This document shows positions 2,277 through 62,158 of a DNA stretch of 64,000 nucleotides, in pieces. The notes beneath the pieces are model-generated. The model saw nothing but the letters and a program-made list of their open reading frames with translations. It had not been told where the DNA came from and did no database searches. The translations under genes and the position numbers were made by a program. Position 1 is the stretch's first letter, and every line of letters starts with the position of its first letter. Source of the DNA: Deltaproteobacteria bacterium (GTDB lineage: Bacteria > Desulfobacterota > GWC2-55-46 > DRQE01); NCBI GenBank assembly GCA_024278765.1, contig JAJRSM010000044.1, positions 5,972 through 69,971 on the forward strand, in the 5' to 3' direction.

Positions 2277-2383
2277 TCCTAGGGTTATCCATGTAATATT
2301 GTCTATAATCTGCCTTAGGAGGCTGCTCAGAGCGACTTTTAAGGACCTTTTGCTTTTTTTTGTCATTCGCCAAGGAGTTTTCT

Positions 2384-5969
<3,586 letters not shown>

Positions 5970-5998
5970 TTGACATTTCGCTGAATTGTTTTAATATA
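5970..5998 (+). promoter_or_regulatory. Candidate sigma70 promoter, TTGACA with a TAATAT-like -10, upstream of the oxidoreductase gene.
   Basis: TTGACA lies at 5970-5975 with an AT-rich -10-like hexamer about 17 nt downstream. Confidence 0.35.
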
Positions 5999-6184
5999 TC
6001 CAATGTTATTTATCGTAGACTCTATGTTGTGAAATGTGGGGTTTTTTAAGGATATGGGTTGTATCTAATGCTTTTTTCTTTGAGTTTATACGGAGAAAAA
6101 GGCGCAGCGAGCCGGATTTACAGGTAAGCCATTCATTAAATAACTGACGTAGTTAAATCAATATACATCGGAGACCTTCTTAAT

Positions 6185-7288
6185 ATGAAAAAAATTAAGA
6201 TTTACGGCGCGGGCTCAATCGGTAATCATCTGGCATATGCATCGCGCAACCTGGGTTATGAAGTGTTAATAAGCGATATCGACGGGGATGCCTTACGGCG
6301 AACCAAAGAAGAGATATATCCGGATAGATACGGCGAGTGGGACGACTCGATCAGGCTCTCTCTGGTAAAAGACATCCCTTCTGACGAGCACTTCGATGTT
6401 GTATTTATAGGCACGCCGCCGGACAGTCACATGGCACTTGCCCTTAAGACCCTTAAAGAAGAAAAGTCAAAGGTCTTGCTGATAGAGAAACCTCTATGTA
6501 CGCCTGATCTCAAAGACGCGCAGGCCTTGTTTGAAGCCTCTGAAAATTCTGAGACTACAGTCTTGGTAGGTTATAATCACGGCCTTGGCGAGAATACGGT
6601 TGAGATAGAAAAGCTTTTGGCAGCAGGCACGATAGGTGAGGCTATAACCCTATACGGTGGTATTCATGAGCACTGGGGCGGTATCTTTAAGGCGCATCCG
6701 TGGCTGAGCGGGCCAAGCGATACCTACCTTGGTTTTGCAAGCAGGGGCGGCGGCGCATGCGGCGAGCACTCGCACGGCATTCATATCTGGCAGCATTTTG
6801 CGCATCTGCTCGGTAAGGGCAAGGTCGTAGAGGTAGCGGCGGTAATGGATATTGTTGATGACGGTACGGTTGACTATGATAGTTTTTGTAACCTTAATCT
6901 GCGCACAGAGAAGGGCTTTGCCGGCACCGTTGCGCAGGACGTAATAACCGCACCATCGAAGAAGTATATGAAGTTGCAAGGTGATGAGGGCTTTCTGGAG
7001 TGGCACGTTAATTACAGCAGCGATGGCGATGCCGTCATGACGAGTCGTGACGGCATCGAGCCTGTGACAACTGTATTGCCAAAGATCAGGCCCGATGATT
7101 TTCGTCTGGAAATGGAGCATGTAAATGATATTATAGATGGTAAGATCAAGGACTCTCCGATATCGCTGGAGCGGGGCCTTGATACTATGATGGTGATAGC
7201 CGCTGCGTATCAGGCCAATATAAAGAAGAAGGTTATGCGCATTGATTACTCAAAGGGATATACCCTTGGTGCGATTGAAGCAATTTAG
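6185..7288 (+). CDS. Gfo/Idh/MocA-family NAD(P)-dependent oxidoreductase.
   Basis: An N-terminal Rossmann motif IYGAGSIGNH is followed by the family hallmark VLLIEKPL. Confidence 0.65.
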   Translation: MKKIKIYGAGSIGNHLAYASRNLGYEVLISDIDGDALRRTKEEIYPDRYGEWDDSIRLSLVKDIPSDEHFDVVFIGTPPDSHMALALKTLKEEKSKVLLIEKPLCTPDLKDAQALFEASENSETTVLVGYNHGLGENTVEIEKLLAAGTIGEAITLYGGIHEHWGGIFKAHPWLSGPSDTYLGFASRGGGACGEHSHGIHIWQHFAHLLGKGKVVEVAAVMDIVDDGTVDYDSFCNLNLRTEKGFAGTVAQDVITAPSKKYMKLQGDEGFLEWHVNYSSDGDAVMTSRDGIEPVTTVLPKIRPDDFRLEMEHVNDIIDGKIKDSPISLERGLDTMMVIAAAYQANIKKKVMRIDYSKGYTLGAIEAI

Positions 7289-7320
7289 TTAAAAATAAAT
7301 CAATTAAATGGTGGTATTAA

Positions 7321-8868
7321 ATGAACTTTGAAGGACTCTTTATCTACGATATGGCCAATAATCATCAGGGCGATCTTGGACATGGCCTGAGGATAATAAA
7401 AGATTTTGCCAAGGTCTCCAGTGAAAAAAGCGTACGAGGGGCTATGAAGTTCCAGTACAGGCAGCTTGCGACCTTTATCCACCCTGACTACAGGGACTAC
7501 GAGGGCAATAAGCATCTCTCAAGGTTTATCTCGACCGAGCTGTCTTCGGAGGATTACGGCGTACTTGCAGCCAGCGCAAAGGAGCAGGGGCTGGTAACGA
7601 TATCAACGCCTTTTGATGAAGAGTCGGTTGATCTAATAGAAAAGCTCAGGATAGATATAATAAAGATAGCCAGTTGCTCGGCGCAGGACTGGCCTTTACT
7701 TGAGCGCGTAGCCCTTGCCGGTAAACCTGTGATCTGCTCGACAGCAGGGCTTAATATTACGCAGATAGATGATATCGTAAGCTTCTTTGAGAAGCACGGC
7801 ACAGAGTTCGCTCTGATGCACTGCGTTGCGATCTATCCGACGCCCTTTGATAAGCTTGCGTTGAATCAGATAAAATTGCTGTCGCGTCGTTATCCGCAGG
7901 TTACAATCGGTTTTTCTACGCATGAAGATCCGGATTGCCTCGATGCCGTTAAGATCGCTTACGCAAAAGGTGCGAGGATATTCGAGAGGCATGTCGGGGT
8001 CAATACCGATAAGTATAAGCTTAACGGGTATTCCTCAACGCCTGAGCAGGTAGCTAGCTGGATAGATTCTTATAAAGAAACACTGGACGGTTGCGGCCCT
8101 TCCGGGCGTGCACCGGTTAGCCAGGAGGAAGAGGCGTCTTTACAGTCTCTTTCGCGCGGTGTCTTTTTGAAAAATCCGGTCGCAAAGGGCGAGGAGATTA
8201 AAAGGGATAATGTCGTCTTCTCTATGCCGATCTTAAAAGGCCAGCTAAAGAGCGGGCTCTGGGCTGACGGGCTTATAGCGGATAAAGGTTACAGCGCGGC
8301 AGAGCCGGTGCCTGCGAGCCTTCGTGATATTTCAATGAGCGATCAGGATACAGTTAACCGCACAATCTTGCAAGTCAAGGGTATGCTTAATAACGCCAAG
8401 ATTTTTCTCGGTGATGACTGCTCGGTAGAGCTTTCGCATCACTACGGCTTGGACCGTTTCCGAGAGTTCGGTGCCGTGATAATTGATTGCATAAACAGGG
8501 ACTACTGCAAGAAGCTGATAATACAGCTTCCTCGTCAGAAGCATCCTTATCATTATCATAAAAAGAAGGAAGAGACCTTTCAGGTCCTAAGCGGCAGCGT
8601 CGAGGTCGAGCTGGAGGGCGAGATGCGTACAATGCTTCCGGGCGATAAGTGTCTTGTAGAGCGCGATAAGTGGCACAAGTTCCAGACCCTGCACGGTGTG
8701 ATCTTTGAAGAGGTCTCGACGACGCACTTTAATAATGATTCTTTTTACGAAGACCCTCTTATCAGCGAGATCCCGAGGGAATCGAGGAAGACAAAGATAG
8801 ATCTCGGGCTAAGGTTACAGATGAACTCCGAGCTGCTTGAAGAAGATGATAAAAGTAATTGTCTTTGA
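7321..8868 (+). CDS. NeuB-family nonulosonate (sialic/KDN/Pse-type) synthase with a C-terminal SAF domain and an additional C-terminal cupin domain.
   Basis: A TIM-barrel NeuB core (HCVAIYPTP, GFSTHE) and SAF region are followed by an extra roughly 150-aa cupin (HYHKKKEETFQVLSGSVEVELEGE...GDKCLVERDKWHKF). Confidence 0.75.
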   Translation: MNFEGLFIYDMANNHQGDLGHGLRIIKDFAKVSSEKSVRGAMKFQYRQLATFIHPDYRDYEGNKHLSRFISTELSSEDYGVLAASAKEQGLVTISTPFDEESVDLIEKLRIDIIKIASCSAQDWPLLERVALAGKPVICSTAGLNITQIDDIVSFFEKHGTEFALMHCVAIYPTPFDKLALNQIKLLSRRYPQVTIGFSTHEDPDCLDAVKIAYAKGARIFERHVGVNTDKYKLNGYSSTPEQVASWIDSYKETLDGCGPSGRAPVSQEEEASLQSLSRGVFLKNPVAKGEEIKRDNVVFSMPILKGQLKSGLWADGLIADKGYSAAEPVPASLRDISMSDQDTVNRTILQVKGMLNNAKIFLGDDCSVELSHHYGLDRFREFGAVIIDCINRDYCKKLIIQLPRQKHPYHYHKKKEETFQVLSGSVEVELEGEMRTMLPGDKCLVERDKWHKFQTLHGVIFEEVSTTHFNNDSFYEDPLISEIPRESRKTKIDLGLRLQMNSELLEEDDKSNCL

Positions 8869-9505
8869 TTTTGACGGGACTATTATAGATTCTAATCAGC
8901 TTAAATATGATGCCTTCTTTCGTATCTTTGAGTATGATAAAAGATATAAAAAAATCGTCAAAGACGTGCTTGATCGTTCACGAGAAGAGACTCGTTTTTC
9001 TATCATAGAGCGTATTCTTAGAATTTTCCAACAAGATTTTCCCGGCATCTTACTGGAAGGTGATATAGGTGAGGTCTCACTCTTATATGCCGCTAAGTAT
9101 AACGATATTGTCGAATCTGCGGCTTCAATTTGTCCCGAGATAAGTGGTGCGTCTGATGCTCTTGATTTTTTATTTAGACGCTATCCGCTATACATAAACT
9201 CAGCTACTCCGCTTGAGCCGCTCAGGCGGATTATATCCGAGCGATCGCTGGATGGTTATTTTGTGGATATCTATGGAGCTCCAAGGGCAAAGATTGAAAA
9301 TCTGTCTGAGATATTGTCTAAAGAGAGTGTCGCTGGGAGTGAAATATTAGTCGTTGGTGATGGTGCTGGAGACCTAAAGTCGGCGTTATACTTTAGCGCA
9401 GCTTTTGTAGGTGTTCGCAATGACTTTAATAGATCTTTGGAGTGGAAAAAAGATATGGTTGATGACTTGAGAACATTACCCGATCTGGTTACTTCCATGA
9501 GCTAA
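8837..9505 (+). CDS. HAD-superfamily phosphatase or hydrolase.
   Basis: The N-terminal VIVFDFDGTIIDS (DxDGT) motif and a late VVGDGAGDL motif are HAD signatures. Confidence 0.75.
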   Translation: MKKMIKVIVFDFDGTIIDSNQLKYDAFFRIFEYDKRYKKIVKDVLDRSREETRFSIIERILRIFQQDFPGILLEGDIGEVSLLYAAKYNDIVESAASICPEISGASDALDFLFRRYPLYINSATPLEPLRRIISERSLDGYFVDIYGAPRAKIENLSEILSKESVAGSEILVVGDGAGDLKSALYFSAAFVGVRNDFNRSLEWKKDMVDDLRTLPDLVTSMS

Positions 9506-9532
9506 TATAGTAATTTTTTAAATCTGGCTTCT

Positions 9533-11209
9533 GTGTTTTTCAAGGCCGTATATAAAAGTGAGTCTTTGTCTGTGAATGAAGCTTATATATTAAATAAAGA
9601 TCGGTCAAAGATAACATTACCTTTGCTTATTGTCATTGTACTTGTAATTATGGCTGGTTTTTTCTTGCGCAGCTATAAGCTCTCTGCCGACCTTCCGTAT
9701 AAGGATTTAGGCCCGACTTGGGTTTTTGTCACCGACGAGGGTGCTTACCCGTATAGCGCTGCACATAAAGTTAAGTATGGTTCATGGCGCGTTGAAGATA
9801 CCTACTATGACGGTTGGACTATACGAGGCTATCAACTATGGGTTGAACAGTTTTTCAAGGGCGGAGGCGTTAACCTTACTTCGGCTCGCTTTGCCTCTGT
9901 AGTTGCTTTTACTCTTGCTTTGTTTTTCTTTGCCTTTGCACTTGCAAGGTATACGTCTTCATCTATGTCTGTTTTTTTTACAATATTTGCCGCTTCTAAT
10001 TTTCTTTTGCTTATGTGGTCCAGGTTTGCGAGCCCCTATGCGGTAAGCCTGCTGCCTATGGCTATTATATTTGCATGTTTTCTTATAGCAATGGCCAAAA
10101 AGAGTTACGCAGCCCTGATAACTGCTGGTGTTGTCACTTTCATTGCCTTTACGATAAAAGAGACCTCTATTATTTATCCCTCGATAGTTGTTATCTCGAT
10201 TATCATTGGCGATTGGCTTTATAGTGGTATGCCTCTTCATAGAGCAATCTTCAATAAGAAGGTATTGGTCTACTTGTTGGCATTTTTAATTCCTATGGCT
10301 CTTTATTATATTTTTTTTCTTAATCCAAATGCTACCGAGTGGTGGAATAGTTCTGCAAAACTTCAAAAGGATACGGTTGCTTCTATAGCCAACCTGAACA
10401 ATGCTGTTGCAGAAAATGTCGCAAAGCCGAATGCCTTTTATAAGTTATTTTTTAAGTATCTGGGGGCAAGACATATCCTGGCGTTATGGTTTCTTGCAGC
10501 CATAGGCATGGTAGTAGAAGGTTTACGTTATTTGTTCGCGCCCGGCTACAGGCGTAGCCTCTGGTCTTTGAGTTCTCTATTTATGGCCCTTTGGTTTTTA
10601 GGAATGTCTGTGGGGATGCTTGTTTTAAGGCTTGGCGGAGGCGTGGCAGAGCACTGGAATGTACTTTTTATCCTGCCTGTCTGTTATTTCGGCGCTGTGA
10701 CAGTGGCAAGTCTCTGGGAGATCGGCAAAGGTGCTTTTCTCCGTAGAGGTAGGACTGTAATGGTAGTAGCTGTCTTTTTGACAGCCATTGTTGTCTTCTC
10801 TGATATGAACAGGTACTACGCGTGGGCCACTACGCCGCTTGAAGATGAGGGTTTAAATTTTGCCGCCTCTGATATAGCAGAAAAGATTATGGAAAGGAGA
10901 GAGGGCTCCACTACGATTGTTATGATCGATGCAACATTCACTCTTTTGAGAGAAGAAAAAATTAATACGATTTTTGTGCGTAATTTCAACTTGAAAGATC
11001 TTCCGCGTATCTATAAACGCTGGAAACCCGGGTATATAGTCGTGCCAGATGATGGGGGTACTTTGTATTCTGTTGCTGTCATGCAAGAGCTTGCAGAAAG
11101 AGGGTTTATAGTAAAGCCGATAAATGAGACCTATCTTGGTTTTTTTGATCACAGAGATTTGAGCATGGTTACTTACGAACTTGCATATAGTCCTGCTGAT
11201 AAAACTTAA
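9533..11209 (+). CDS. GT-C fold membrane glycosyltransferase (GT39/ArnT-like), paralog 2.
   Basis: About 11 TM helices precede a soluble C-terminal domain, and the architecture matches ORFs 4461 and 12785. Confidence 0.55.
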   Translation: MFFKAVYKSESLSVNEAYILNKDRSKITLPLLIVIVLVIMAGFFLRSYKLSADLPYKDLGPTWVFVTDEGAYPYSAAHKVKYGSWRVEDTYYDGWTIRGYQLWVEQFFKGGGVNLTSARFASVVAFTLALFFFAFALARYTSSSMSVFFTIFAASNFLLLMWSRFASPYAVSLLPMAIIFACFLIAMAKKSYAALITAGVVTFIAFTIKETSIIYPSIVVISIIIGDWLYSGMPLHRAIFNKKVLVYLLAFLIPMALYYIFFLNPNATEWWNSSAKLQKDTVASIANLNNAVAENVAKPNAFYKLFFKYLGARHILALWFLAAIGMVVEGLRYLFAPGYRRSLWSLSSLFMALWFLGMSVGMLVLRLGGGVAEHWNVLFILPVCYFGAVTVASLWEIGKGAFLRRGRTVMVVAVFLTAIVVFSDMNRYYAWATTPLEDEGLNFAASDIAEKIMERREGSTTIVMIDATFTLLREEKINTIFVRNFNLKDLPRIYKRWKPGYIVVPDDGGTLYSVAVMQELAERGFIVKPINETYLGFFDHRDLSMVTYELAYSPADKT

Positions 11210-12791
11210 TGGTTTGTTCTGTAGCTTTAAGTTTTTTACTCTAATCTCAAAAAGGTTATTTTTCATGTTTATGTTGTTCGGAGGTGATTTTAAATTTTCA
11301 AGTAAGATTGTGCTGCCATGGTTGTGTTTCGTTGTCTTTGCATTTTTTCTGGCTTTTATTGGAGTAATTAGTCTTGCTGCATTATTGATTCTGACAATAT
11401 GTCCTTCTCTGGCTCTGGTTTTTTTATTTTCTCCCAAGGTTGGTTTAATGGTTATTGTGTTAATAAGGACCTCCCTTGATGCCTTTGCTCAAAAAATAAT
11501 ATTGGAGTCTCTTGGGAATACCTACTTTAATCTACAAATGATACTCACTGTGGAGATTATCGTTATATTAAGTGTCATGGTATTTATTTTCTTTATAACA
11601 AGAAAAGCTGAATTTAAAAACTGGTCGTTCCTCTTGGCCGCCGGAGCTTTTTTACTGTATTGTCTGATCTCTGTATTCTTCAGTTCTGATCTTTTTAATG
11701 CCTTGCATGCGTATCTTAGGTATTTGACATGGATACTTCTGATGGTATCGATCTTGATCTTTGTGAAAACAAAAGCAGATATTGACCGTTTTATGGTAGT
11801 AGGAATGATGGCTGCTATACTGCCTGTTTTAAGCGTTTTATGGGATATAGGTAATGGCGCAACCCTTGGGAGTCATTATGGCATTAATGATATTAAAGGC
11901 GTATATGACAATCCGCCTAAAATGGCAAGCGTACTTTTTGCTGTATTGCCGTTTTCAATATTTAAGGTTGAGCAGTCTTTGCAGACAAAGGGTAAGTGGG
12001 GTTGGGAGCGGCTTTCATTGTTTCTTCTTCCAGTTATCTTTATAGGCGTTTTATATACATATTACAGGGCTGTATGGTTAGCCGTTATATCTTCTTTAGC
12101 AATCACAACACTGTATTACATTAAAACTTCCAGACTGTATTTTATTATTTTTATTGTTTTATTATCTTTGTTTGTCTGGCAAAATATTGATCATATCAGG
12201 TTTAAGATGAGAGATTCGCCTTTGCAGTTGATCGAGAAGAAGATGGATGTTCTTTTAAAATTTGTTCAAGTGGAGAAGAAGATGGATATTCCTTTAAAAT
12301 TTGTTCAAGTGGAACATGAAGTCCTTGACTACGGTTCAGGGCGTCTGAGGATCTGGAGCAATATTGTTAATGCCTGGCTTGATGCGCCTATATATAAAAA
12401 AGTCTTCGGTTTCGGCATGTCTTCATCGGTTGAAATGTCGGGGCGCACGAATAAAGCGGGGATTATATCCAATGCGCACAATGATTTCCTTGCACTCTTG
12501 ATAAACCAGGGGGTATTGGGGCTGGGGCTTTTCTTTTGGCTGGTCTATGAAATATTAAGGCCTATACTGGTGCTTTTGAGGAGGGCTAAGGACCCATATT
12601 ATAGATGTCTAGCCGTTGTCTCTTTTTCGTTGATCCTTGCTTGTTTTTTTCTGGCGATGACATTTTTATTGTTGCAAACAATGGCTGTGATGTTTTATGT
12701 TGCAATTTTCTTGGCTCTAACATTGGTAGCCTGTAATTTGAGTATTAAATCCTGTAACGACGATGATAAGGCAGGTACATGTAAGTGGTAG
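11181..12791 (+). CDS. O-antigen ligase (WaaL/Wzy_C) family membrane protein; the true start is probably an internal Met near 11266.
   Basis: The protein is polytopic with a large periplasmic loop and the conserved NAHNDFLALLINQGVLG motif (H-N-D-x-L). Confidence 0.7.
   Translation: MHIVLLIKLNGLFCSFKFFTLISKRLFFMFMLFGGDFKFSSKIVLPWLCFVVFAFFLAFIGVISLAALLILTICPSLALVFLFSPKVGLMVIVLIRTSLDAFAQKIILESLGNTYFNLQMILTVEIIVILSVMVFIFFITRKAEFKNWSFLLAAGAFLLYCLISVFFSSDLFNALHAYLRYLTWILLMVSILIFVKTKADIDRFMVVGMMAAILPVLSVLWDIGNGATLGSHYGINDIKGVYDNPPKMASVLFAVLPFSIFKVEQSLQTKGKWGWERLSLFLLPVIFIGVLYTYYRAVWLAVISSLAITTLYYIKTSRLYFIIFIVLLSLFVWQNIDHIRFKMRDSPLQLIEKKMDVLLKFVQVEKKMDIPLKFVQVEHEVLDYGSGRLRIWSNIVNAWLDAPIYKKVFGFGMSSSVEMSGRTNKAGIISNAHNDFLALLINQGVLGLGLFFWLVYEILRPILVLLRRAKDPYYRCLAVVSFSLILACFFLAMTFLLLQTMAVMFYVAIFLALTLVACNLSIKSCNDDDKAGTCKW
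12226..12310 (+). repeat. In-frame tandem duplication of 39 bp (two 13-codon units, EKKMDVLLKFVQV and EKKMDIPLKFVQV) inside the ligase gene.
   Basis: Two adjacent near-identical 39-nt units differing at three positions were read directly from the sequence. Confidence 0.8.
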
Positions 12792-14140
12792 GGATTAAAG
12801 ATAATATTTTTACCGGTAAGGTGCTGGTACTACTCTTGTTCGCCTTTTTAGTTCGTTTGTTTATGTTGTATTTTTTAGGGGATACCCTTAACTTTGATTT
12901 GGGACATATTGCAAATCTAGAAAATTTACTGGCCGGAAACGGACTTTCGGATACGCTGGTCTCAGCTGACGGTACAACTACCTATCTGCCAACCGCAAGA
13001 GACCTGCCGTTACACGGATTGATGATAGCCGCCACATGGGTCTTGAGTGGTACGCGCAGCTTTATCTTTATCCAGCTGGTACAGATGGCGATCGATAGCT
13101 TTATGCTGGTGCTGGTCTATCTTATCGCCAGGGACCTTTTTGGAGAGAGGGTTGGTTTTTTATCGGCGATTTTATTTGCCTTCTACCTGCCTGAAGCATG
13201 GCTCTCCATCTATGTCAGAAGGGATATATGGGTTTCCTTTGCAACTATTTCTCCATTTTACGTTTGCCTGAAATATATCCGTACCGAGCAAATAAAGTAT
13301 GTAGTTTTAGCTGGAATAACACTTGGTTTGGGGGTTTACTTTAGATCCACCATGTTTTTTTTCCCTGTTGCTATTGGCGTAGCCATGTTGCTCTTTATCC
13401 GCTTTAGAAAGGCCGTTATAGCTGCTGTTATTATGACCGGCATTATAGTTGTATTTTTATCACCCTGGGCTATCAGGAACTATATGGTCTTTGACAGGTT
13501 CGTGCCTACCGAGGTCAACTTTAATCAATCGATCTGGGAGGGCTTTGGTGAGTTTCCAAACCCAGTGGGTGCGGTCAACAATGATGAGGCGACCTTCGAG
13601 CAGATGAGAAAAGAGGGTTTTACCGGTAGGCCTGCTTCATTTGAATATGAGGATTTTCTTGCTCCGAAGGTTAAGAAGGTTTTAAAGGAGCATAAGCTTT
13701 GGTACATAGGGACTATGTTTAGAAGGATTCCCAGGGCACTCCTTGTAAATCGCGTACCATGGGGAGTCTTTCAGGCTCGCACTGACCAGGTGGGTTTTCA
13801 TAAGATATACGCGCACAATAATCAAGAAAAAAGTGTGATAACCTACGCAAAGTATATGCTGAAGGTAAATCCAGGCTTCCTTATTACCAAAATTTTTGAT
13901 ACAGTTATCTTTTTCCTTGCTCTTTTTGGGTTGATTCTAGCACTTAAGGGGCGCAGTTCCAGGCGTAACGCCTTACTATTGACGGCAGCCCCGCTATACT
14001 TTATTATGATACTTATTCCAATTAGAATGGAGGGCAGGTATATTGTTGCTGTCCACTGGACTTTCTTGATATTTATGAGTTTTGCCCTTATTTATCTGAA
14101 AGACAGGTTATTGAGTTATCGCAGCAGGAGAAGGCTTTAG
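12785..14140 (+). CDS. GT-C fold membrane glycosyltransferase (GT39/ArnT-like), paralog 3.
   Basis: The polytopic N-terminus (DxxRDIWVS region) is followed by a C-terminal soluble domain and then TM segments. Confidence 0.55.
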   Translation: MVGIKDNIFTGKVLVLLLFAFLVRLFMLYFLGDTLNFDLGHIANLENLLAGNGLSDTLVSADGTTTYLPTARDLPLHGLMIAATWVLSGTRSFIFIQLVQMAIDSFMLVLVYLIARDLFGERVGFLSAILFAFYLPEAWLSIYVRRDIWVSFATISPFYVCLKYIRTEQIKYVVLAGITLGLGVYFRSTMFFFPVAIGVAMLLFIRFRKAVIAAVIMTGIIVVFLSPWAIRNYMVFDRFVPTEVNFNQSIWEGFGEFPNPVGAVNNDEATFEQMRKEGFTGRPASFEYEDFLAPKVKKVLKEHKLWYIGTMFRRIPRALLVNRVPWGVFQARTDQVGFHKIYAHNNQEKSVITYAKYMLKVNPGFLITKIFDTVIFFLALFGLILALKGRSSRRNALLLTAAPLYFIMILIPIRMEGRYIVAVHWTFLIFMSFALIYLKDRLLSYRSRRRL

Positions 14141-14141
14141 T

Positions 14142-14882
14142 ATGATTGAAAAGAAGAAGTGTAAGGTTGCCGTAGTGATGCCGGCATACAATGCTGCGCA
14201 GACTCTGGTGCGTACCTACAAGGCTATTCCTAAAGGGGTGGTAGATGAGATACTCTTGGTTGACGATAGCAGTCACGATGATACGGTAGAAATCGCCAAG
14301 CTCCTTGGTATAAAGACCATTGTTCATGAAAAAAATGTCGGGTATGGGGGTAATCAAAAGACCTGCTATACTCATGCCCTGGATGATCAATCCGATATTA
14401 TTATAATGCTGCATCCTGATTATCAGTATGATCCCAGCATTATACCTGACCTGATAAAGCCGATAAAAGAAGGCAGGGCCGATGTGGTCTTTGCATCCCG
14501 TATGCTTGGTAATCCGCTAAAGGGAGGAATGCCTCTTTATAAGTTTGTCGCCAATAAGTGTCTTACCAAGTTCCAGAATGTAGTATTTGGCACTAATTAT
14601 TCGGAGTTTCATACAGGATACAGGGCATTTAGCAGCAAGCTTTTGAGGTCATTGTCTTATCATACAAACTCAAATAACTTTATCTTTGATAATGAAATGA
14701 TAGCCCAGATAGTTATGAAGGGCTTTAAGATATATGAGATCCCTGTCAAGACCCGTTACGCTACGGATTCTTCATCGACAAGTTTTAAGACAAGCGTCAT
14801 CTATGGTCTGGGTATTTTAAAGGTCTGTGCAAGGTATTTTTTCCATAAGTATGGGATTAAAAAAGATTCTCTGTTTAATTAA
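14142..14882 (+). CDS. GT2 glycosyltransferase, polyprenyl-phosphate sugar synthase-like (GtrB/ArnC/DPM1-like).
   Basis: VAVVMPAYNAAQTL with a DDSSHDDT (DxD) motif fits the family, and the gene directly follows a GT-C gene. Confidence 0.75.
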   Translation: MIEKKKCKVAVVMPAYNAAQTLVRTYKAIPKGVVDEILLVDDSSHDDTVEIAKLLGIKTIVHEKNVGYGGNQKTCYTHALDDQSDIIIMLHPDYQYDPSIIPDLIKPIKEGRADVVFASRMLGNPLKGGMPLYKFVANKCLTKFQNVVFGTNYSEFHTGYRAFSSKLLRSLSYHTNSNNFIFDNEMIAQIVMKGFKIYEIPVKTRYATDSSSTSFKTSVIYGLGILKVCARYFFHKYGIKKDSLFN

Positions 14883-15959: not shown

Positions 15960-16751
15960 ATGAGTGAGATGAAGGTTGTGATACTGGCGGGCGGCACAGG
16001 GACGCGCCTTAGTGAAGAGACGTATCTAAAACCCAAGCCGATGGTTGAGATCGGCGGTAAGCCGGTGCTATGGCATCTTATGAAGCTGTACTCCCATTAC
16101 GGGTTTAATGATTTTATCGTCTGCCTCGGGTACAAGGGGTATATGATAAAGGAATATTTTGCCAATTATTTCCTGCATCAAAGTGATGTTACTATAGATA
16201 TCAAGAATAACTCTTTAGATGTGCATCAAAATACCGCAGAGCCGTGGAAAATAACACTGATTGATACCGGCGATGACTCAATGACCGGCGGTAGGGTTAA
16301 GCGTATCCAAAAATATACCGATGATAAGCCGTTTATGTTGACCTATGGTGACGGTCTTGGTGATGTTGATATCGCAGCTTTACTTGAATATCATAAGAGC
16401 CACGGCAGACTTGCAACCGTTACATCTTCTCAGCCATCGGGGCGTTTTGGGGCGTTGACGTTGGATGATAATGGTCAGATAGGGGCTTTTCAAGAAAAGC
16501 CGGACGGAGACGGGGGCTGGATTAATTCAGGTTTTTTTGTAATGGAGCAGGGCATCTTTGCCTATATAGAGGGAGACTCGACTCTGCTTGAAAGAGAGCC
16601 GCTGGAGAGGCTAGCCTCGGATAAAGAACTCTTTGCTTATAAGCATCATGGCTTTTGGAAGCCTATGGATACGCTACGCGATAAAAGAGAGCTGGAAGGG
16701 CTTTGGGACTCCGGCAAACCACCGTGGAAGATCTGGAAGGGACAAAAGTGA
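15960..16751 (+). CDS. rfbF: Glucose-1-phosphate cytidylyltransferase.
   Basis: MKVVILAGGTGTRLSEETYLKPKPMVEIGGKPVLWHLMK is close to the canonical RfbF sequence. Confidence 0.9.
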   Translation: MSEMKVVILAGGTGTRLSEETYLKPKPMVEIGGKPVLWHLMKLYSHYGFNDFIVCLGYKGYMIKEYFANYFLHQSDVTIDIKNNSLDVHQNTAEPWKITLIDTGDDSMTGGRVKRIQKYTDDKPFMLTYGDGLGDVDIAALLEYHKSHGRLATVTSSQPSGRFGALTLDDNGQIGAFQEKPDGDGGWINSGFFVMEQGIFAYIEGDSTLLEREPLERLASDKELFAYKHHGFWKPMDTLRDKRELEGLWDSGKPPWKIWKGQK

Positions 16752-17623
16752 GGATTTTGATCACAGGGGCTACTGGTTTTATTGGCAGCTCTGTTGCTAC
16801 CAGATTATTTGCTGACGGGCACAGACTTACGCTCTTGAAGCGTACAGGCTCGGATACCGGACGTATTAAAGATCTTTTGCACAAGGTCGCTGTCTATGAT
16901 ATTGACGTGCACAGTTTGGAGGAGATCATTGCAGGTGAGACCCCAGAGCTTATTGTGCATCTTGCGACTAATTACGGAAGGTCAGGGGAGAGCCCGATTG
17001 ATATTGTAGAGACAAATATTGGTTTTCCCTCGGCCCTTATTGATGCAGCCCTTAGAAGCGGTTTGAAATACTTTATAAATACCGATACGGCTGCACCGCA
17101 GGAGTATACATTCTACGCCTCTACGAAGAAGGCATTTCTGCATCCGCTTGGTTTTTTCTGTAAGGAAAAGGCCCTTAAGGTCGTAAGCTTAAAGCTTGAG
17201 TATGTTTACGGTCCTGGTGATGACGACAATAAGTTTATACCGTATATGATAAAGAGTGTCCTCTCAGGTGAAGAGGTCGATGCGTCTGGGGGCGAGCAGA
17301 AAAGGGATTTTATACATCTGGATGACGTTGTGGATGCATATGCCAGTGCGGTGGCTTCGATAGTCGAGATGGAAGAGGATTACATCTCTATCGATATTGG
17401 GTCTGGTCAGTCAATTAGCCTTAAAGCCTTTGCTTCTCTGGTCGCCGATTTTTCAACTATTGATATGAAGATCAACTGGGGCGCGCGACCTTACAAGAAA
17501 AATGAGATCTTTGACTCAAAGGCAGATATAACGAAAGCCGAAAAAATACTTGGTTGGCATCCGAAGCGTGCACTGCACGACGTTCTCAAGGATACTGTTG
17601 ATAGCTACAGGCAAGGTGCATGA
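16749..17623 (+). CDS. rfbS: CDP-paratose synthase-like SDR 4-reductase (RfbS/RfbJ family); a GTG start overlapping the rfbF stop is likely.
   Basis: The Rossmann motif VRILITGATGFIGSSV, a length of about 290 aa and its place within the rfbF-G-H-E set support the call. Confidence 0.6.
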
Positions 17624-18738
17624 CTGTGATGAACTGTTTTGATCAGGTCTATAAAGGTAAGAAGGTTTTTTTGACTGGGCACACCGGTTTTAAGGGAGCT
17701 TGGATTTCTTTGTGGCTCATAGAGCTTGGTGCAGAGGTCTTTGGGTATGCTTTAGAGCCACCGACCGAGCCGAGTCTTTTTGAGGCGGCGGGGCTAAAGG
17801 ATAAAATGGTTCATCATGTTGGCGATGTGCGTGATGCAGCTAAACTTAGTGCTGCTCTGCGGGAATTTGCTCCAGAGTTTGTCTTCCATCTTGCGGCTCA
17901 GCCCCTGGTCCGGCTTGGCTATAACGACCCGAAGCTTACCTATGAGACCAATATCATGGGGACGGTCAACCTCTTTGAGGCTGTTAGAGCGTGCCCGTCG
18001 GTAAGGGTAGTTGTAAACGTCACAAGCGATAAGTGTTATGAAAATATTGAGTCGGATTACGGTTATAAAGAAGATGACCCTATGGGTGGTTACGATCCGT
18101 ATAGCTCAAGCAAGGGCTGTGCAGAGCTCGTAACATCTGCCTACAGAAGGTCGTTTTTTAATGATGACGGCAGCGAAGGTGTAGTAGCTCTCTCATCGGC
18201 ACGCGCCGGTAACGTGATAGGCGGCGGAGACTGGGGCGATGATAGGCTCATCCCTGACTGCGTAAGAGCGATAGAGGCCGGCGAGGGTGTACAGATACGC
18301 AACCCAAGGGCCGTTCGTCCGTGGCAGCATGTCTTGGAGCCTCTCTCTGGTTATCTTACGCTCGGTGCGTTAAGCTACAGAAAGAATGCGGCCTATAGCA
18401 CTGGCTGGAACTTCGGCCCAGCTCCGGGCGAGGTGTTGACGGTTGAGGATATCGTAGGGCTTTTGGTGAAAGAGTGGGGCAAGGGTCGTCTGGAGATAGA
18501 TTCTTCCAGCCATCCGCATGAGGCAGGGCTTTTGATGCTTGATTGTAGTAAAGCCGAGGTAGATCTCGGGTGGTGTGCTGCGTGGGACGTCCAGGCGGCG
18601 ATAGAGAAGACAGCGGCCTGGTATAAGGCCTTTTATGAAGGTCAGAGCGTGCAACAGACCTATGATTATACACTCGGTCATATAACGAGCTATATTGAAG
18701 ATGCGCTGAAAAAGGGAATCGAGTGGAGTGGTAAATGA
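17620..18738 (+). CDS. rfbG: CDP-glucose 4,6-dehydratase.
   Basis: KKVFLTGHTGFKGAWISLWL is the canonical RfbG N-terminus. Confidence 0.88.
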   Translation: MTVMNCFDQVYKGKKVFLTGHTGFKGAWISLWLIELGAEVFGYALEPPTEPSLFEAAGLKDKMVHHVGDVRDAAKLSAALREFAPEFVFHLAAQPLVRLGYNDPKLTYETNIMGTVNLFEAVRACPSVRVVVNVTSDKCYENIESDYGYKEDDPMGGYDPYSSSKGCAELVTSAYRRSFFNDDGSEGVVALSSARAGNVIGGGDWGDDRLIPDCVRAIEAGEGVQIRNPRAVRPWQHVLEPLSGYLTLGALSYRKNAAYSTGWNFGPAPGEVLTVEDIVGLLVKEWGKGRLEIDSSSHPHEAGLLMLDCSKAEVDLGWCAAWDVQAAIEKTAAWYKAFYEGQSVQQTYDYTLGHITSYIEDALKKGIEWSGK

Positions 18739-20051
18739 GTAAAACCAAGGCAGCCGAACTAAAGGCTGAGATATTTAAAAAGGTAACCGAGTATTTTGAG
18801 GCTATTCACAGGGTAGAGCGTGAAGCCGTATTTGAGCCGGGTGTTTCAAAGGTACATTACGCAGGGCGTGTCTTTGATGATAGAGATATGATAAACCTTG
18901 TTGACTCAGCGATGGATTTTTGGCTGACGGCAGGGCCTTATGCCAGAGAGCTTGAGAAGAGTATGCGTGAGTTCTTCGGGGCCAGAGGTTTCTATCTGGT
19001 CAACTCCGGCTCTTCTGCAAACCTTGTTATGGTCTCGACGCTTAGGGCCGCCTCTTACAAAGGCCATCTCAAGCTTGGTGATGAGGTGATAACTCCTGCG
19101 GTTACCTTTCCGACGACCCTTACGCCTATCCTGCAGAATCAACTAGTCCCTGTCTTTGTCGATGCAGAGGTTGGCACATATAACATAGATCCGGCCAGGA
19201 TTGAAGAAGCAATAGGCCCTAAGACGCGCGCGATACTGATACCTCATACCCTTGGCAACCCGTGTAAGATGGATACGATAATGGAGATTGCCGCGAGAAA
19301 GGGGTTAGTCGTTTTGGAAGATTGCTGTGACGCACTGGGCTCTAGGTTTGACGGAAAGATGGTAGGAACTTTCGGGGCGATGGCCTCGCTTAGTTTTTAT
19401 CCGGCCCACCACATGACGATGGGTGAGGGCGGTGGGGTCGTTGTAAATAATCCTGAGTTTGATAAGATAGTACTCTCGGTACGTGATTGGGGTAGGGATT
19501 GCTGGTGCGAGCCGGGCCATAGCGGCACATGCGGCGAGAGGTTTACCGGTACCTTCGGCAAGCTGCCAAAGGGGTATGATCATAAATATGTTTACTCCAA
19601 CCACGGCTATAACCTTAAGGTCACTGATATGCAGGCAGCAGTGGGGCTCTCTCAATTTGATAAATTGGCGGGTTTTATAGAAGCCAGAAAAAAGAACTTT
19701 AAATATTATTATACAGAGCTTAGAGCGTTGGAAGATTATCTTGTTCTGCCAAGGTGGGAAGAAAAGGCAGACCCTTCGTGGTTTGCCTTTCCTGTAACGG
19801 TTAAGCAAGGCGTGGATTTTAATTCGCTTATACAGTATTTGGAAGATGCAAAGATAGAGACGCGCAAGGTCTTTGCCGGCAATATTCTGCGCCAGCCAGG
19901 CTTTACCTCAATAGAGCACAGGCTTGGTGGCAGCCTTGAAAATACGGACACGATAATGGACAGGACATTTTTTATAGGCGTCTATCCGGGGCTCACTCAA
20001 CCGATGATGGAGTTTGTTGCAGATACCTTTAAGGGTTTTTTTAGAGGCTAG
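18735..20051 (+). CDS. rfbH: CDP-6-deoxy-D-xylo-4-hexulose 3-dehydrase (E1), a PMP-dependent DegT-family enzyme.
   Basis: The DegT/DnrJ fold, a CxCx7C iron-sulfur motif (DCWCEPGHSGTC) and a 438-aa length match RfbH/DdhC. Confidence 0.85.
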   Translation: MSKTKAAELKAEIFKKVTEYFEAIHRVEREAVFEPGVSKVHYAGRVFDDRDMINLVDSAMDFWLTAGPYARELEKSMREFFGARGFYLVNSGSSANLVMVSTLRAASYKGHLKLGDEVITPAVTFPTTLTPILQNQLVPVFVDAEVGTYNIDPARIEEAIGPKTRAILIPHTLGNPCKMDTIMEIAARKGLVVLEDCCDALGSRFDGKMVGTFGAMASLSFYPAHHMTMGEGGGVVVNNPEFDKIVLSVRDWGRDCWCEPGHSGTCGERFTGTFGKLPKGYDHKYVYSNHGYNLKVTDMQAAVGLSQFDKLAGFIEARKKNFKYYYTELRALEDYLVLPRWEEKADPSWFAFPVTVKQGVDFNSLIQYLEDAKIETRKVFAGNILRQPGFTSIEHRLGGSLENTDTIMDRTFFIGVYPGLTQPMMEFVADTFKGFFRG

Positions 20052-20053
20052 CT

Positions 20054-21082
20054 ATGAAGTATTTGATTACAGGTGGATGTGGTTTTCTGGGTTCTAATCT
20101 AGCCTCAGAGGTTTTGGCACGTGGAGAAGAGCTGTGCATATTTGATAACCTCTCCAGAGAGGGCAGTGAACTGAACCTTGAGTGGTTGCGTAGCAAGGGA
20201 GAGTTTTTACTTGATAAGGGCGACGTACGAGACCTCGGTGTACTCGATAAGATTTTAAATGACTTTACCCCGGATGTTATTTTGCATCTGGCCGGTCAGG
20301 TCGCCATGACAACTTCTATTGCTGATCCCAGGCTTGACTTTGAGATTAATGCCCTTGGTACATTTAATCTGCTTGAGTCAGTCAGGCGAAATTGTCCTGA
20401 GAGTATTGTGATATACTCTTCGACCAATAAGGTCTACGGCGATCTTGAGTACCTTGAGTACAAAGAAGAGCCTACGCGCTATATATGCGAAGAGCGTCCT
20501 GAGGGACTAGGTGAAGATACGACCCTGGAGTTTCATTCTCCTTACGGTTGTTCCAAGGGAGCGGCCGATCAGTACATGCTTGACTACGCCCGTATCTTTG
20601 GGCTTAATACGGTCGTCTTTCGTCATTCGTCGATGTATGGAGGCAGGCAGTTTTCAACCTATGATCAGGGCTGGGTAGGATGGTTTTGTCAGAAGGCCCT
20701 TGAGATAAAGTGCGAGACGTTAAAAGAATCTTTTACAATATCCGGCAACGGTAAGCAGGTCAGAGACGTCCTGCATGCAGAAGATATGAAGCGTCTGTAC
20801 TTTGCAGCGATAGATAATATAAAGGACGCAAGAGGGCAGGCCTTTAATATAGGCGGAGGCATCGATAACAGCCTTTCGCTGCTTGAGCTCTTTGCATTGC
20901 TCGAAGAGATTCTGGATATAAAAATGGTCTATGATATTTTGCCGCCGCGCCGGAGCGATCAGAAGATATTTGTTGCTGACCTTGATAAGGTGCAAAAGCT
21001 TTTAAAGTGGAAGCCTCAGGTAAGTGCCAGGCAGGGGATAGAGAAGATGCTTGCATGGCTTGGTGAGGAAGTTAAGGGGTAA
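20054..21082 (+). CDS. rfbE: CDP-paratose 2-epimerase (CDP-tyvelose epimerase).
   Basis: Very strong resemblance to Salmonella RfbE across HLAGQVAMTTSI, YSSTNKVYGDLE and HSPYGCSKGAADQYMLDYARIFGLNTVVFRHSSMYGGRQF. Confidence 0.9.
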   Translation: MKYLITGGCGFLGSNLASEVLARGEELCIFDNLSREGSELNLEWLRSKGEFLLDKGDVRDLGVLDKILNDFTPDVILHLAGQVAMTTSIADPRLDFEINALGTFNLLESVRRNCPESIVIYSSTNKVYGDLEYLEYKEEPTRYICEERPEGLGEDTTLEFHSPYGCSKGAADQYMLDYARIFGLNTVVFRHSSMYGGRQFSTYDQGWVGWFCQKALEIKCETLKESFTISGNGKQVRDVLHAEDMKRLYFAAIDNIKDARGQAFNIGGGIDNSLSLLELFALLEEILDIKMVYDILPPRRSDQKIFVADLDKVQKLLKWKPQVSARQGIEKMLAWLGEEVKG

Positions 21083-21883: not shown

Positions 21884-23026
21884 ATGAAGACTCGTTTTAA
21901 GGTCGCTCAAATCGAATTAACAAACCACTGTAATATGAAGTGCCCTTTTTGTCCTCAACCAACGTTGATGACAAGAAAAAAGCTTTTTATGGACTTAGAT
22001 CTATATTATAAAATAATAGACCAGGTTGTTGAAGATAATCTGGCCGACTGTGTTTCGTTGACTGGTCTTGGTGAGCCTACTCTTTATAAAAAATTAATAA
22101 GTGCGGTAGAATATGCAACTGATAAGGGGCTATCTGTAAAGGTCTCGACCAATGGGTTACTTTTGAACGTCGAGACCTTGCTGAACCTTTACAGAGCGCG
22201 TTTGGATAATTTGTTCTTCAGCTTGCAGATAATGGATGAAGAGGCTTACCGTGAAAGGTTGGATGGAAAAAATAAGCAAACCTTTAAAGAGTATTTAGAT
22301 AACCTTAAAGTGATTATCTCAACTCATATACGGAACAATCCACAGACCAAGCTACGTATATCTATCATGGGCAACTGGTATCTGCCACATAAAAATATAT
22401 TGGGACTTAGGTATTTTAATTTATCAACTGATCTGTTGCGTGATTTTATTGAGCCGATCTTCTCTCTTATAGAGAGCGAGAGTTCTTTGAAAAAGAAGAG
22501 TTTAAAGTTGAGCTTGGATGATATAAAGATTCCCAGGTTTTATGAAAATGACAGGGAGTACTGGATACTTGATAATTTGTCACTTGTCCTTAAAGAGGCT
22601 AATGGATGGGCCAATTCTATGGACGCCTCCGATGACTATGTACTTATACCGGCTAAGAAAGGTTTTTGTGTAGCACAAAAAAACATGTTTGAGATTTTTG
22701 CTGACGGTACTGTCTGCCTATGCTGTTTGGATTATGACGCTAAAACAACTTTAGGAAAACTTACGCTTGGTGGGAATGAACGATTGGTAGATATTTTATT
22801 TGAAGGTCGTGGTAAGCAAATTAAGGATAGTTTTGATAAAGGCAATATTATTCTACCGTTTTGCCAGCGATGTCTTGGAAAACGTCGCCATAAAAAGAAA
22901 TTGGTACATTATGGTAATATGATAAGATTTTATCCATTTAAGGTTATGGATGTTATGCTTAAAAATAGAAGTTCATTAATGACGAGAATACGTTATTCTG
23001 TGATCAATAAATTTTTCAAGGTGTAG
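21884..23026 (+). CDS. Radical SAM enzyme with a C-terminal SPASM/twitch Cys-rich domain.
   Basis: CNMKCPFC (CX3CX2C) near the N-terminus and C-terminal Cys clusters (CLCC...CQRC) support the call. Confidence 0.75.
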   Translation: MKTRFKVAQIELTNHCNMKCPFCPQPTLMTRKKLFMDLDLYYKIIDQVVEDNLADCVSLTGLGEPTLYKKLISAVEYATDKGLSVKVSTNGLLLNVETLLNLYRARLDNLFFSLQIMDEEAYRERLDGKNKQTFKEYLDNLKVIISTHIRNNPQTKLRISIMGNWYLPHKNILGLRYFNLSTDLLRDFIEPIFSLIESESSLKKKSLKLSLDDIKIPRFYENDREYWILDNLSLVLKEANGWANSMDASDDYVLIPAKKGFCVAQKNMFEIFADGTVCLCCLDYDAKTTLGKLTLGGNERLVDILFEGRGKQIKDSFDKGNIILPFCQRCLGKRRHKKKLVHYGNMIRFYPFKVMDVMLKNRSSLMTRIRYSVINKFFKV

Positions 23027-27864: not shown

Positions 27865-28054
27865 TTAGGGTTAATAACTGCCCATGGCGGGTCGAAGGCT
27901 GCAAACAAGAACGGTGTTAGGTCTTTGACTGGAGACTTCGAATAATGAGTTTTGAGATTTTAGGGTTGATAACCGCCCATGGCGGGTCGAAGGCTGCAAA
28001 CTAGAATGGTGTTAGGTCTTTGACTGGAGACTTCGAATAATGAGTTTTGAGATT
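27865..28054 (+). repeat. Tandem repeat of two 95-bp units (27865-27959, 27960-28054), with a third unit continuing into the gene from 28055; each unit is the leader plus first about 17 codons of the downstream cytidylyltransferase gene. A 19-codon decoy ORF runs 27945-28004.
   Basis: The period is 95 bp with about 93% identity between units; the decoy reads MSFEILGLITAHGGSKAAN* against the real start MSFEILGLITARGGSKTV. Confidence 0.85.
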
Positions 28055-29930: not shown

Positions 29931-29931
29931 G

Positions 29932-41449: not shown

Positions 41450-41452
41450 GTT

Positions 41453-62111: not shown

Positions 62112-62158
62112 AACTCTTCCGTCCTATGTTTGTTTTTTAAAGTTCATTAAATATTTTT

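Follow-up and report, generated by a model that had tools for sequence, protein, structure and literature searches.

A NeuB-cupin fusion in a widely conserved gene cassette, probably for a CMP-activated, non-aminated 3-deoxy-2-ulosonic acid

Why should a homologue of sialic acid synthases carry a cupin at its C-terminus, and what does the locus that encodes it make? The question is raised by a 64,000-nucleotide stretch of DNA from a Deltaproteobacteria bacterium (contig JAJRSM010000044.1, positions 5,972 to 69,971), hereafter the window. An earlier note, made from the letters alone, had described there a Gfo/Idh/MocA-family oxidoreductase gene that precedes a gene for a NeuB-type synthase fused to a cupin and an overlapping gene for a phosphatase of the HAD superfamily, and this arrangement is correct: all three open reading frames (ORFs) are present at the positions given in Table 1, and their Pfam matches agree with the names. 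The answer developed below is that these genes are, on balance, probably three of the four members of a widely conserved cassette whose product, a CMP-activated, non-aminated 3-deoxy-2-ulosonic acid, goes into a surface glycan. This acid is most likely 2-keto-3-deoxy-D-glycero-D-galacto-nononic acid (KDN) or a close relative.

The cupin that follows the NeuB core and the SAF domain is longer than the roughly 150 residues first attributed to it: it covers about 175 (residues ~340-515), because an N-terminal helix typical of D-lyxose isomerases belongs to it. Pfam places Cupin_2 at residues 404-455 (E 1.7e-8), and the Lyx_isomer model (PF07385) reaches 22.2 bits against a cut-off of 20.8, though without a significant match over any one stretch. 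With a profile built from the last 180 residues, the D-lyxose isomerases 2y0o and 7nzo are retrieved (E ~5e-9), the upstream helical region included, whereas other cupins align with a 45-residue core only. A model of the cupin domain alone (predicted local distance difference test score, pLDDT, 85.5; predicted template modelling score, pTM, 0.80) was compared with the PDB using Foldseek. The top nine matches are all D-lyxose/D-mannose isomerases (2y0o, 7nzo/p/q, 3kmh/3mpb), aligned over 174-222 columns with template modelling (TM) scores of 0.62-0.67, whereas archaeal phosphomannose isomerase (PMI) cupins align over ~90 columns only. No RmlC-type epimerase is found among the 50 listed matches, where an RmlC-like cupin fold, 3fjs, stands at rank 50 (E 6e-5). 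The earlier note had thought of a cupin of the type-II PMI kind, and this assignment has to be abandoned: the window protein gives no match at E <0.01 to the type-II PMI model PF01050 (MannoseP_isomer), and its cupin belongs with the D-lyxose/D-mannose isomerases instead.

Are the residues required for isomerization still there? In TsLI, the D-lyxose isomerase of Thermofilum, the sugar and Mn are contacted by K62, H75, H77, K86, E88, H143, E156 and D163 (PMC8378251). A hidden Markov model alignment equates the first seven of these with K398, H411, H413, K416, E418, H452 and E464, all of which are invariant in 25 members of the fusion family. D163 faces N471, a position that is Asn or Asp across the family, and D473, two residues on, is invariant. 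R175, by which TsLI shuts out hexoses (PMC8378251), is not kept in the fusion family, and the window protein has E483 at this position. Further invariant residues are specific to the family: H373 and H374, and R489, K490 and T491 in the C-terminal extension, R489/K490 being an extra basic pair without counterpart in D-lyxose isomerases. To judge from sequence and model, the cupin is a full-length D-lyxose/D-mannose-isomerase domain with its metal and catalytic residues intact. From the fold match and the conserved residue set one would predict an active isomerase that interconverts aldoses and ketoses of lyxo/manno configuration. The idea that this is a sugar isomerase and not a degenerate or regulatory cupin thus survives, since metal and substrate residues are kept.

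The other half of the protein is a member of the NeuB family (PF03102, residues 41-231, E 5.6e-40, 137.8 bits against a cut-off of 22.1). Its best sequence match in the PDB is 3g8r, the 'probable SpsE' of Chromobacterium violaceum (E 1.3e-89, residues 5-333), followed by SpsE, Neisseria meningitidis NeuB (NmNeuB), Leptospira NeuB and PseI at 1e-13 to 1e-25. The fold ranking, obtained with Foldseek from an AlphaFold model, agrees with the sequence ranking, NmNeuB, PseI and SpsE scoring E 1e-21 to 1e-23. In this full-length model (mean pLDDT 81.4, pTM 0.51) the placement of the NeuB part relative to the cupin is unreliable. A SAF-like domain lies between the two: the 3g8r alignment reaches residue 333, and the Foldseek match spans 340 of the 348 NmNeuB columns. 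The protein scores 131 bits with the N-acetylneuraminate synthase equivalog TIGR03569, far under the cut-off of 399.65, and 124.8 bits with the PseI equivalog TIGR03586, whose cut-off is 340.25. Because both scores are so far under their cut-offs, the window synthase would be placed in a separate clade of the NeuB family. Its core does not group with the NeuB or PseI equivalogs, which agrees with the earlier note.

K43/Q45, K115/S118, S140, H201 and E222/H224 are invariant in the 25 family members, and in the SpsE alignment 'FSDH' faces 'FSTH' (H201) and 'EKHF' faces 'ERHV' (E222, H224). By comparison with NmNeuB, H201 and H224 are the divalent-metal His pair, and the Lys and Ser positions would bind PEP (phosphoenolpyruvate). 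The Glu of the classical 'KIxSxE' motif, Glu134, is replaced by Ser120 in the alignment to known structures, and in the SAF domain M302 stands where 'LRPG' of SpsE has its Arg. The SAF Arg of NmNeuB, R314 (compare the R314A/K entries 4ipi and 4ipj), contacts the N-acetyl group, and a Met in its place fits a non-N-acetylated substrate. R47 and R68 are family-invariant basic residues of the NeuB part that Bacillus subtilis SpsE lacks.

The phosphatase matches HAD_2 (E 2e-11, 44.8 bits) and TIGR01549 (29.1 bits against a cut-off of 23.3). It has the DxDGT motif (D11, D13), and across 60 orthologues each of the four HAD motifs (D11/D13, S122/T124, K152 and D175/D179) shows a conservation of 90% or more. 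No KdsC/BT1713-type (C0) phosphatase model is found among its NCBIfam matches, and the PDB search returned a COG0546 phosphatase only (9e-5). A natural protein of 723 residues (P0251) joins NeuB, cupin and HAD in one chain, which ties the phosphatase to the same pathway as the fusion. The oxidoreductase consists of a PF01408 (GFO_IDH_MocA) domain (E 2.6e-11) and a PF22725 C-terminal domain, and its orthologues keep both the Rossmann motif GAGSIGNH and the EKP motif without exception. No characterised close homologue was found in PDB and NCBIfam searches with single sequences and profiles, which gave weak matches to uncharacterised or unrelated Gfo/Idh/MocA proteins. With their respective motifs conserved in this way, both the phosphatase and the oxidoreductase are expected to be active.

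How widespread is this combination? A search of 5.8 billion protein sequences with the fusion gave thousands of matches. The best 120 of these thousands are all proteins of 502-535 residues made of NeuB and Cupin_2 (with or without Lyx_isomer), at 57-63% identity except for one close relative at 92%. When the cupin domain alone was compared with 1.84 billion representative sequences, it gave 755 matches, mostly at positions ~340-500 of proteins of ~500 residues. Thousands of database entries share this architecture at 55-63% identity, which puts its occurrence in the window protein far beyond chance. In contigs chosen to represent one genome per species, at least 467 stretches or species genomes from more than 10 phyla encode a relative, the closest one (95% identity) in an uncultured Thermodesulfobacteriota metagenome-assembled genome. 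The carriers include Thermodesulfobacteriota, Alphaproteobacteria, Bdellovibrionota, Planctomycetota, Bacteroidota, Bacillota, Actinomycetota, Verrucomicrobiota, Kiritimatiellia, Marinimicrobia and phyla of the candidate phyla radiation (CPR); Desulfofustis glycolicus DSM 9705 is among the cultured ones. A protein search of a plasmid collection gave no fusion match at E <1e-20. Some relatives are already named 'sialic acid synthase SpsE/mannose-6-phosphate isomerase-like protein (cupin superfamily)', and a literature search found no study of the NeuB-cupin architecture or its function, 3G8R being mentioned merely in passing. The earlier statement that such a fusion is undescribed is therefore right for its function and wrong for the architecture, which is abundant, automatically annotated and in part crystallised (3G8R).

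The neighbours of the fusion were counted with tblastn, using the window proteins as queries, in a non-redundant set of 50 loci whose flanks measure 3.5 kb or more to either side. This count was preferred to one by ORF clustering, which runs low in GC-rich loci, where spurious antisense ORFs displace real genes. Adjoining the fusion are a Gfo/Idh/MocA gene in 46 loci, a HAD gene in 44 and a CTP_transf_3 cytidylyltransferase gene in 48; 39 loci have all three, and in 37 the genes run in the order Gfo, NeuB-cupin, HAD, cytidylyltransferase. That the HAD phosphatase and the oxidoreductase are conserved partners, as the earlier note had supposed, is thereby borne out. What the analysis establishes is the identity of the domains, the intactness of their catalytic residues, the linkage of the genes and the conservation of their order across phyla. 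The conserved cassette contains no aminotransferase, acetyltransferase, NeuC or hydrolysing 2-epimerase, and the PseB/C and LegB/C genes are not part of it. An apparently aminated variant, locus L017, in which a short-chain dehydrogenase/reductase (SDR) gene and a DegT gene lie between fusion and cytidylyltransferase, was considered and set aside: these genes are of the PseB/PseC type and form an interleaved pseudaminic acid pathway, so that the locus is uninformative.

In the window the cytidylyltransferase gene is separated from the other three, and the earlier note had passed over it, as well as over the sister subfamily described below. Its product matches CTP_transf_3 (PF02348; E 2.3e-19, 70.5 bits against a cut-off of 22.6) and, among known structures, the CMP-N-acetylneuraminate synthetase 6ifd at E 2.9e-30 compared with 1.9e-7 for KdsB. 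With 143 bits it stays under the 205.7 cut-off of the PseF model and is not a PseF equivalog. It clusters as an orthologue with the cassette-adjoining genes of 64 loci and is 45-60% identical to the cassette copies of loci L019, L045, L042, L021 and L066. A little upstream lies a gene for a TagB/Glyphos_transf-like glycosyltransferase that scores 73.7 bits, under the cut-off of 200, with the BFO_1060 family of nonulosonic-acid transferases; BFO_1060 and Tanf_01245 are the Tannerella forsythia transferases for derivatives of pseudaminic and legionaminic acid (PMC5420450). By this resemblance it is a candidate transferase for the CMP-activated sugar acid. BFO_1060-like homologues of it flank the cassette in 10 other loci, and a TIGR04396 'surface carbohydrate biosynthesis protein', which also matches the BFO_1060 model weakly, does so in 40 of 83. 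A methyltransferase gene (25686-26438) is situated directly 5' of the TagB-like gene. Elsewhere, tailoring genes are found in or beside the cassette, for a carbamoyltransferase in L030 (11537-13255) and for S-adenosylmethionine (SAM) methyltransferases in L020 (5063-5932), L042 (4829-5557) and L045; they suggest O-carbamoylated or O-methylated forms of the sugar acid.

A sister subfamily has the same architecture in another setting. The structure 3G8R ('putative spore coat polysaccharide biosynthesis protein E') represents approximately the first 350 residues of a 495-residue NeuB-SAF-cupin protein (P0121), the cupin having been left out of the crystallised construct. Proteins of this type (495-497 residues; C. 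violaceum, Azoarcus sp. KH32C, a Gemmatimonadaceae metagenome-assembled genome and others) share 44-45% identity with the window protein; in their cupin HxH motif, Gln takes the place of the first His. Their genes lie in loci that encode an NTP-transferase, a 4,6-dehydratase, usually a DegT protein, the fusion, a thiamine pyrophosphate (TPP) enzyme of ~600 residues and then methyltransferases and SDRs (Table 1); these loci contain no cytidylyltransferase gene, and the Azoarcus cluster is near a flagellin gene. From this context, the TPP enzyme may use the 2-keto acid that the sister fusion makes in deoxysugar tailoring. In a 414-residue fragment (P0296), a cupin of this kind is fused to a TPP enzyme, of which the N-terminal and middle domains are present.

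What pathway would the four genes form? The substrates, the order of steps, the product and the role of the oxidoreductase are inferred from the enzyme families as follows. The metal-dependent cupin would convert a 2-ketose, probably phosphorylated (for example fructose 6-phosphate, Fru-6-P), to a lyxo/manno-configured aldose, which would be handed to the fused NeuB domain for irreversible condensation with PEP. One intermediate being phosphorylated on this proposal, the HAD enzyme would take the phosphate off; its simplest substrate would be the ulosonate phosphate, by analogy with the routes through KDN-9-phosphate (KDN-9-P) and Kdo-8-phosphate (Kdo, 3-deoxy-D-manno-octulosonic acid). The cytidylyltransferase would then make the CMP-sugar and the TagB-like transferase add the sugar to a glycan, while the oxidoreductase probably changes one stereocentre or hydroxyl, or prepares the ketose. 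The logic proposed in the earlier note, an isomerase that supplies the aldose and a phosphatase that removes the phosphate, is the best available reading, given the kept cupin residues, the conserved HAD and Gfo partners and the P0251 triple fusion; mannose 6-phosphate (Man-6-P) as the intermediate is no more than a candidate.

Several points weigh against this pathway. The characterised D-lyxose isomerases work on free sugars and not on phosphates (PMC8378251), so that membership of the family lends no support to a Man-6-P intermediate. The phosphatase is, by its matches, of the capped HAD-IA type and not of the KdsC/BT1713 type; the parallel drawn earlier with the KDN route of Bacteroides thetaiotaomicron does not extend to the class of phosphatase. 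The HAD gene is absent from ~12% of the loci. The oxidoreductase is as conserved as the other cassette genes, yet a plain route from Fru-6-P to KDN needs none. The comparisons made with the NeuB core covered NeuB, PseI and SpsE. Finally, a sister subfamily without cytidylyltransferase means that the product of the fusion is not always a CMP-activated glycosyl donor, which limits the CMP-sugar reading for the family as a whole and not for the window, where the cassette is of the cytidylyltransferase type.

The first of these points opens the way to another order of steps: if the isomerase uses free sugars, the phosphatase might act before it, freeing the ketose (for example Fru-6-P to fructose), which the cupin would turn into mannose or lyxose and NeuB into a free ulosonic acid. 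All characterised D-lyxose isomerases would agree with this, the eight residues that bind sugar in TsLI are kept or almost kept, bacterial NeuB, PseI and LegI generally take unphosphorylated aldoses, and the triple fusion is equally compatible with a HAD-first order. Moreover, a NeuB-isomerase fusion of Serratia needs only NeuA and NeuB for KDN, no phosphatase being mentioned (PMC9000132). On the other hand, the extra invariant basic residues R47, R68 and R489/K490 suit an anionic substrate, a slight lean and no proof, and releasing fructose or xylulose by a phosphatase would be a wasteful step for which pathways of this kind offer no known precedent. I consider the unphosphorylated route unlikely, if by no means far-fetched. 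The chain length may also differ from that of KDN: starting from a pentulose or its phosphate, via D-lyxose or its phosphate, the product would be a C8 octulosonate isomeric with Kdo, or an acid of some other length. The closest relatives of the cupin are D-lyxose isomerases, one of which strongly prefers a pentose, and isomerase, synthase, phosphatase and cytidylyltransferase follow one another exactly as KdsD, KdsA, KdsC and KdsB do. This alternative seems improbable to me, since the cytidylyltransferase is much nearer the CMP-sialic acid and PseF enzymes than KdsB, the adjoining transferases resemble those for nonulosonic acids, and the Arg with which TsLI excludes hexoses is not conserved.

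The conservation of the oxidoreductase gene, which equals that of the others and to which a plain KDN route gives no role, could mean instead that it acts together with the cupin in tailoring. The cupin would then not supply the substrate; a hydroxyl of the ulosonate or its precursor would be oxidized and the product undergo an enediol-type keto-isomerization or epimerization. The oxidoreductases AciE and EpaA/EpaB epimerise C8 of nonulosonic acids (PMC12053666). Cupin keto-isomerases, for their part, are common in deoxysugar pathways. The fusion to a synthase and the complete set of aldose-ketose isomerase residues argue for direct hand-over of the substrate, however, and two Bacteroidota loci (L042, L045) keep NeuB-cupin, HAD and cytidylyltransferase with no Gfo gene nearby, so that the cupin works without it; I therefore regard joint tailoring with considerable doubt. 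It is very improbable, on the other hand, that the protein makes ordinary N-acetylneuraminic (Neu5Ac), pseudaminic or legionaminic acid and bears its cupin by accident. The automatic annotation as N-acetylneuraminate synthase speaks for it, whereas the NeuB and PseI equivalog scores are far too low, the conserved cassette has none of the genes NeuC, PseB/C and LegB/C, and the SAF Arg is a Met. Nor is ordinary Neu5Ac synthesis indicated by the rest of the window, whose sole 2-epimerase is a non-hydrolysing WecB (501 bits, against 106 for NeuC) encoded beside a WecG/TagA transferase.

A bolder version of the reading preferred here can be formulated. The product might be an undescribed CMP-ulosonic acid, distinct from KDN, Kdo and the neuraminic, legionaminic and pseudaminic acids, its stereochemistry or oxidation state being set by the oxidoreductase and the lyxose-isomerase domain; NeuB-cupin would then be a general 'ketose to 2-keto-3-deoxy acid' module that feeds a TPP enzyme in the sister subfamily. 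I put this forward tentatively, as less likely than not. If true, a new acid would be displayed on surfaces in more than 10 bacterial phyla, the CPR included, and the TPP enzyme of the sister subfamily would make deoxysugars that are branched or extended, destined for instance for flagellin or O-antigen.

Some details of the three-gene unit itself should be added. The HAD ORF, counted from its TTG codon, shares 32 nt with the 3' end of the synthase gene; an alternative in-frame ATG at 8846, with the start MIKVIVFDFDGT, would reduce the overlap to 23 nt. The gap 5' of the oxidoreductase gene measures 215 nt and contains a promoter-like site, found by a consensus scan, which is possibly the start of the unit.

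Table 1. Positions of the cassette genes, their domains and associated features in the window, and of the loci of the sister subfamily
Feature	Position	Strand	Remarks
Promoter-like TTGACA-16 nt-TAATAT	5970-5997	+	consensus scan, 10/12 positions; pattern match only
Gfo/Idh/MocA-family NAD-dependent oxidoreductase	6185-7288	+	367 aa; first cassette gene
NeuB-type synthase-SAF-cupin fusion	7321-8868	+	515 aa
NeuB-type PEP-condensing TIM-barrel core and SAF/AFP-like domain	7321-8325	+	residues 1-335 of fusion
D-lyxose/D-mannose-isomerase-type cupin domain	8326-8868	+	residues 336-515 of fusion
HAD-IA phosphatase	8837-9505	+	222 aa, TTG start; third cassette gene
TagB/Glyphos_transf-like glycosyltransferase	26438-27847	+	PF04464, E 3.8e-10
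NeuA/PseF-like CMP-sugar-acid cytidylyltransferase	28040-28765	+	fourth cassette gene, ~18.5 kb downstream here
Sister loci	L084 10001-13320; L085 6751-17846; L086 6849-16549; L087 1576-8448		

The unit is embedded in a glycan cluster. Membrane proteins are encoded 3' of the HAD gene, and the three genes are flanked by two PMT_2/ArnT-like membrane glycosyltransferases (4461-5969 and 12785-14140). Between the HAD gene and the second of these are a 558-residue membrane protein without family match (9533-11209) and a Wzy_C/O-antigen-ligase-like protein (11181-12791); a GT2 gene follows (14142-14882). The gene set of 4461-14882 suggests that a glycan is assembled on the outer face of the membrane. 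Upstream, a GDP-mannose 4,6-dehydratase gene and a GDP-fucose-synthase-like gene occupy 2360-4464. Downstream, 15960-21082 holds a complete set for a CDP-3,6-dideoxyhexose, with RfbF, RfbG and RfbH above the NCBIfam equivalog cut-offs and two SDR enzymes alongside; the same surface-glycan cluster therefore also makes a dideoxyhexose. A radical SAM/SPASM protein (21884-23026), a B12-binding radical SAM enzyme (29896-31407), which is a candidate C- or P-methyltransferase, and a 722-residue zinc-type alcohol dehydrogenase with a second Gfo/Idh/MocA domain (31404-33572) are also encoded. A divergent GDP-heptose-like cassette (39172-42058) comprises a GHMP kinase, a nucleotidyltransferase, a SIS isomerase and a histidine-phosphatase-family enzyme, which takes the expected place of a GmhB-type HAD; the kinase, HddA-like, scores 166 bits against a cut-off of 600 and the isomerase, GmhA-like, 107 against 209. 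A XerC/D-type tyrosine recombinase gene on the minus strand (42374-43285) marks the end of this plus-strand cluster of ~40 kb. Gene orientation and GC skew switch at ~42000, and housekeeping genes (GlnD, an AmiC-like amidase, MutS, GH57, BamB) are found downstream. Two minus-strand genes at 59400-63451 encode ATP-citrate-lyase/citryl-CoA-synthetase-like domains (Citrate_bind, ATP-grasp_2, CoA_binding, Succ_CoA_lig), which hints at a reductive tricarboxylic acid cycle in this Thermodesulfobacteriota organism.

Sialic-acid-like sugars shape the interactions of bacteria with hosts, phages and surfaces, and mass-spectrometric surveys have reported KDN-type acids to be widespread in environmental bacteria; the genetic basis of these acids is known for a few organisms only. 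A four-gene cassette present in hundreds of species from very different phyla is a testable candidate for the missing route to KDN-type acids; failing that, it might yield a new sugar. Thousands of database entries probably bear the name 'N-acetylneuraminate synthase' in error. Fusing isomerase and synthase would let the irreversible PEP condensation pull an unfavourable ketose-aldose equilibrium, and such an enzyme could serve the enzymatic synthesis of KDN-type acids from cheap ketoses.

How, then, does the cassette compare with known systems? Among single proteins, the C. violaceum 'SpsE' of 3G8R shares NeuB, SAF and cupin with the window protein, from which its subfamily differs by the NDP-hexose/TPP context and the cupin Gln. 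N. meningitidis NeuB and Campylobacter jejuni PseI have the TIM-barrel and SAF fold and the metal-binding His pair in common with it, at an identity of merely 20-25%; the window protein departs from them by Ser120 in place of Glu and Met in place of the SAF Arg, and its cassette lacks a NeuC or Pse gene context. The cupin matches the D-lyxose/D-mannose isomerases B. subtilis YdaE (2Y0O), Thermofilum TsLI (7NZO) and Escherichia coli Z5688 (3KMH) over their full length (TM ~0.65), metal ligands and the catalytic Lys and Glu included. These, however, are free-standing, catabolic enzymes of free sugars, whereas the window domain is fused to a synthase and has H373, H374, R489, K490 and T491. The Kdo pathway, in which KdsD is the isomerase, KdsA the synthase, KdsC the phosphatase and KdsB the cytidylyltransferase, likewise proceeds from ketose phosphate to aldose phosphate, PEP condensation, dephosphorylation and CMP activation. 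The cassette has a cupin for the SIS isomerase, NeuB for the DAHP/KDO8P synthase family, HAD-IA for KdsC, a NeuA-like enzyme for KdsB, and an oxidoreductase in addition.

Two of the closest systems make KDN. The KDN-9-P route, characterised in B. thetaiotaomicron and Prymnesium parvum, uses a synthase (BT1714), a phosphatase (BT1713) and a CMP-Kdn synthetase (PMC6200933); like the cassette, it relies on a PEP-condensing synthase of the NeuB family, on a phosphatase of its own and on a synthetase for the CMP-sugar acid, without amino-sugar steps. In the window, by contrast, the synthase is fused to a cupin, the phosphatase is of the capped HAD-IA type in place of a KdsC-type C0 HAD, and a Gfo/Idh/MocA oxidoreductase is integral. 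The NeuB of the Serratia marcescens KL1/KL2 capsule loci (747 aa), which together with the NeuA cytidylyltransferase is required for a KDN-rich capsule, carries a COG1082 sugar-phosphate isomerase/epimerase domain (PMC9000132), and thus, like the window protein, joins a NeuB-family synthase to a domain of sugar isomerase type. That domain is a xylose-isomerase-like TIM barrel in Serratia and a cupin in the window; in the account of the Serratia locus no phosphatase is mentioned, nor is an oxidoreductase described as belonging to it (PMC9000132), whereas the window cassette has both. The window locus is neither a categorically new system nor a unique architecture; it is best described as representing an uncharacterised but widespread variant of the pathways that make ulosonic acids with PEP.

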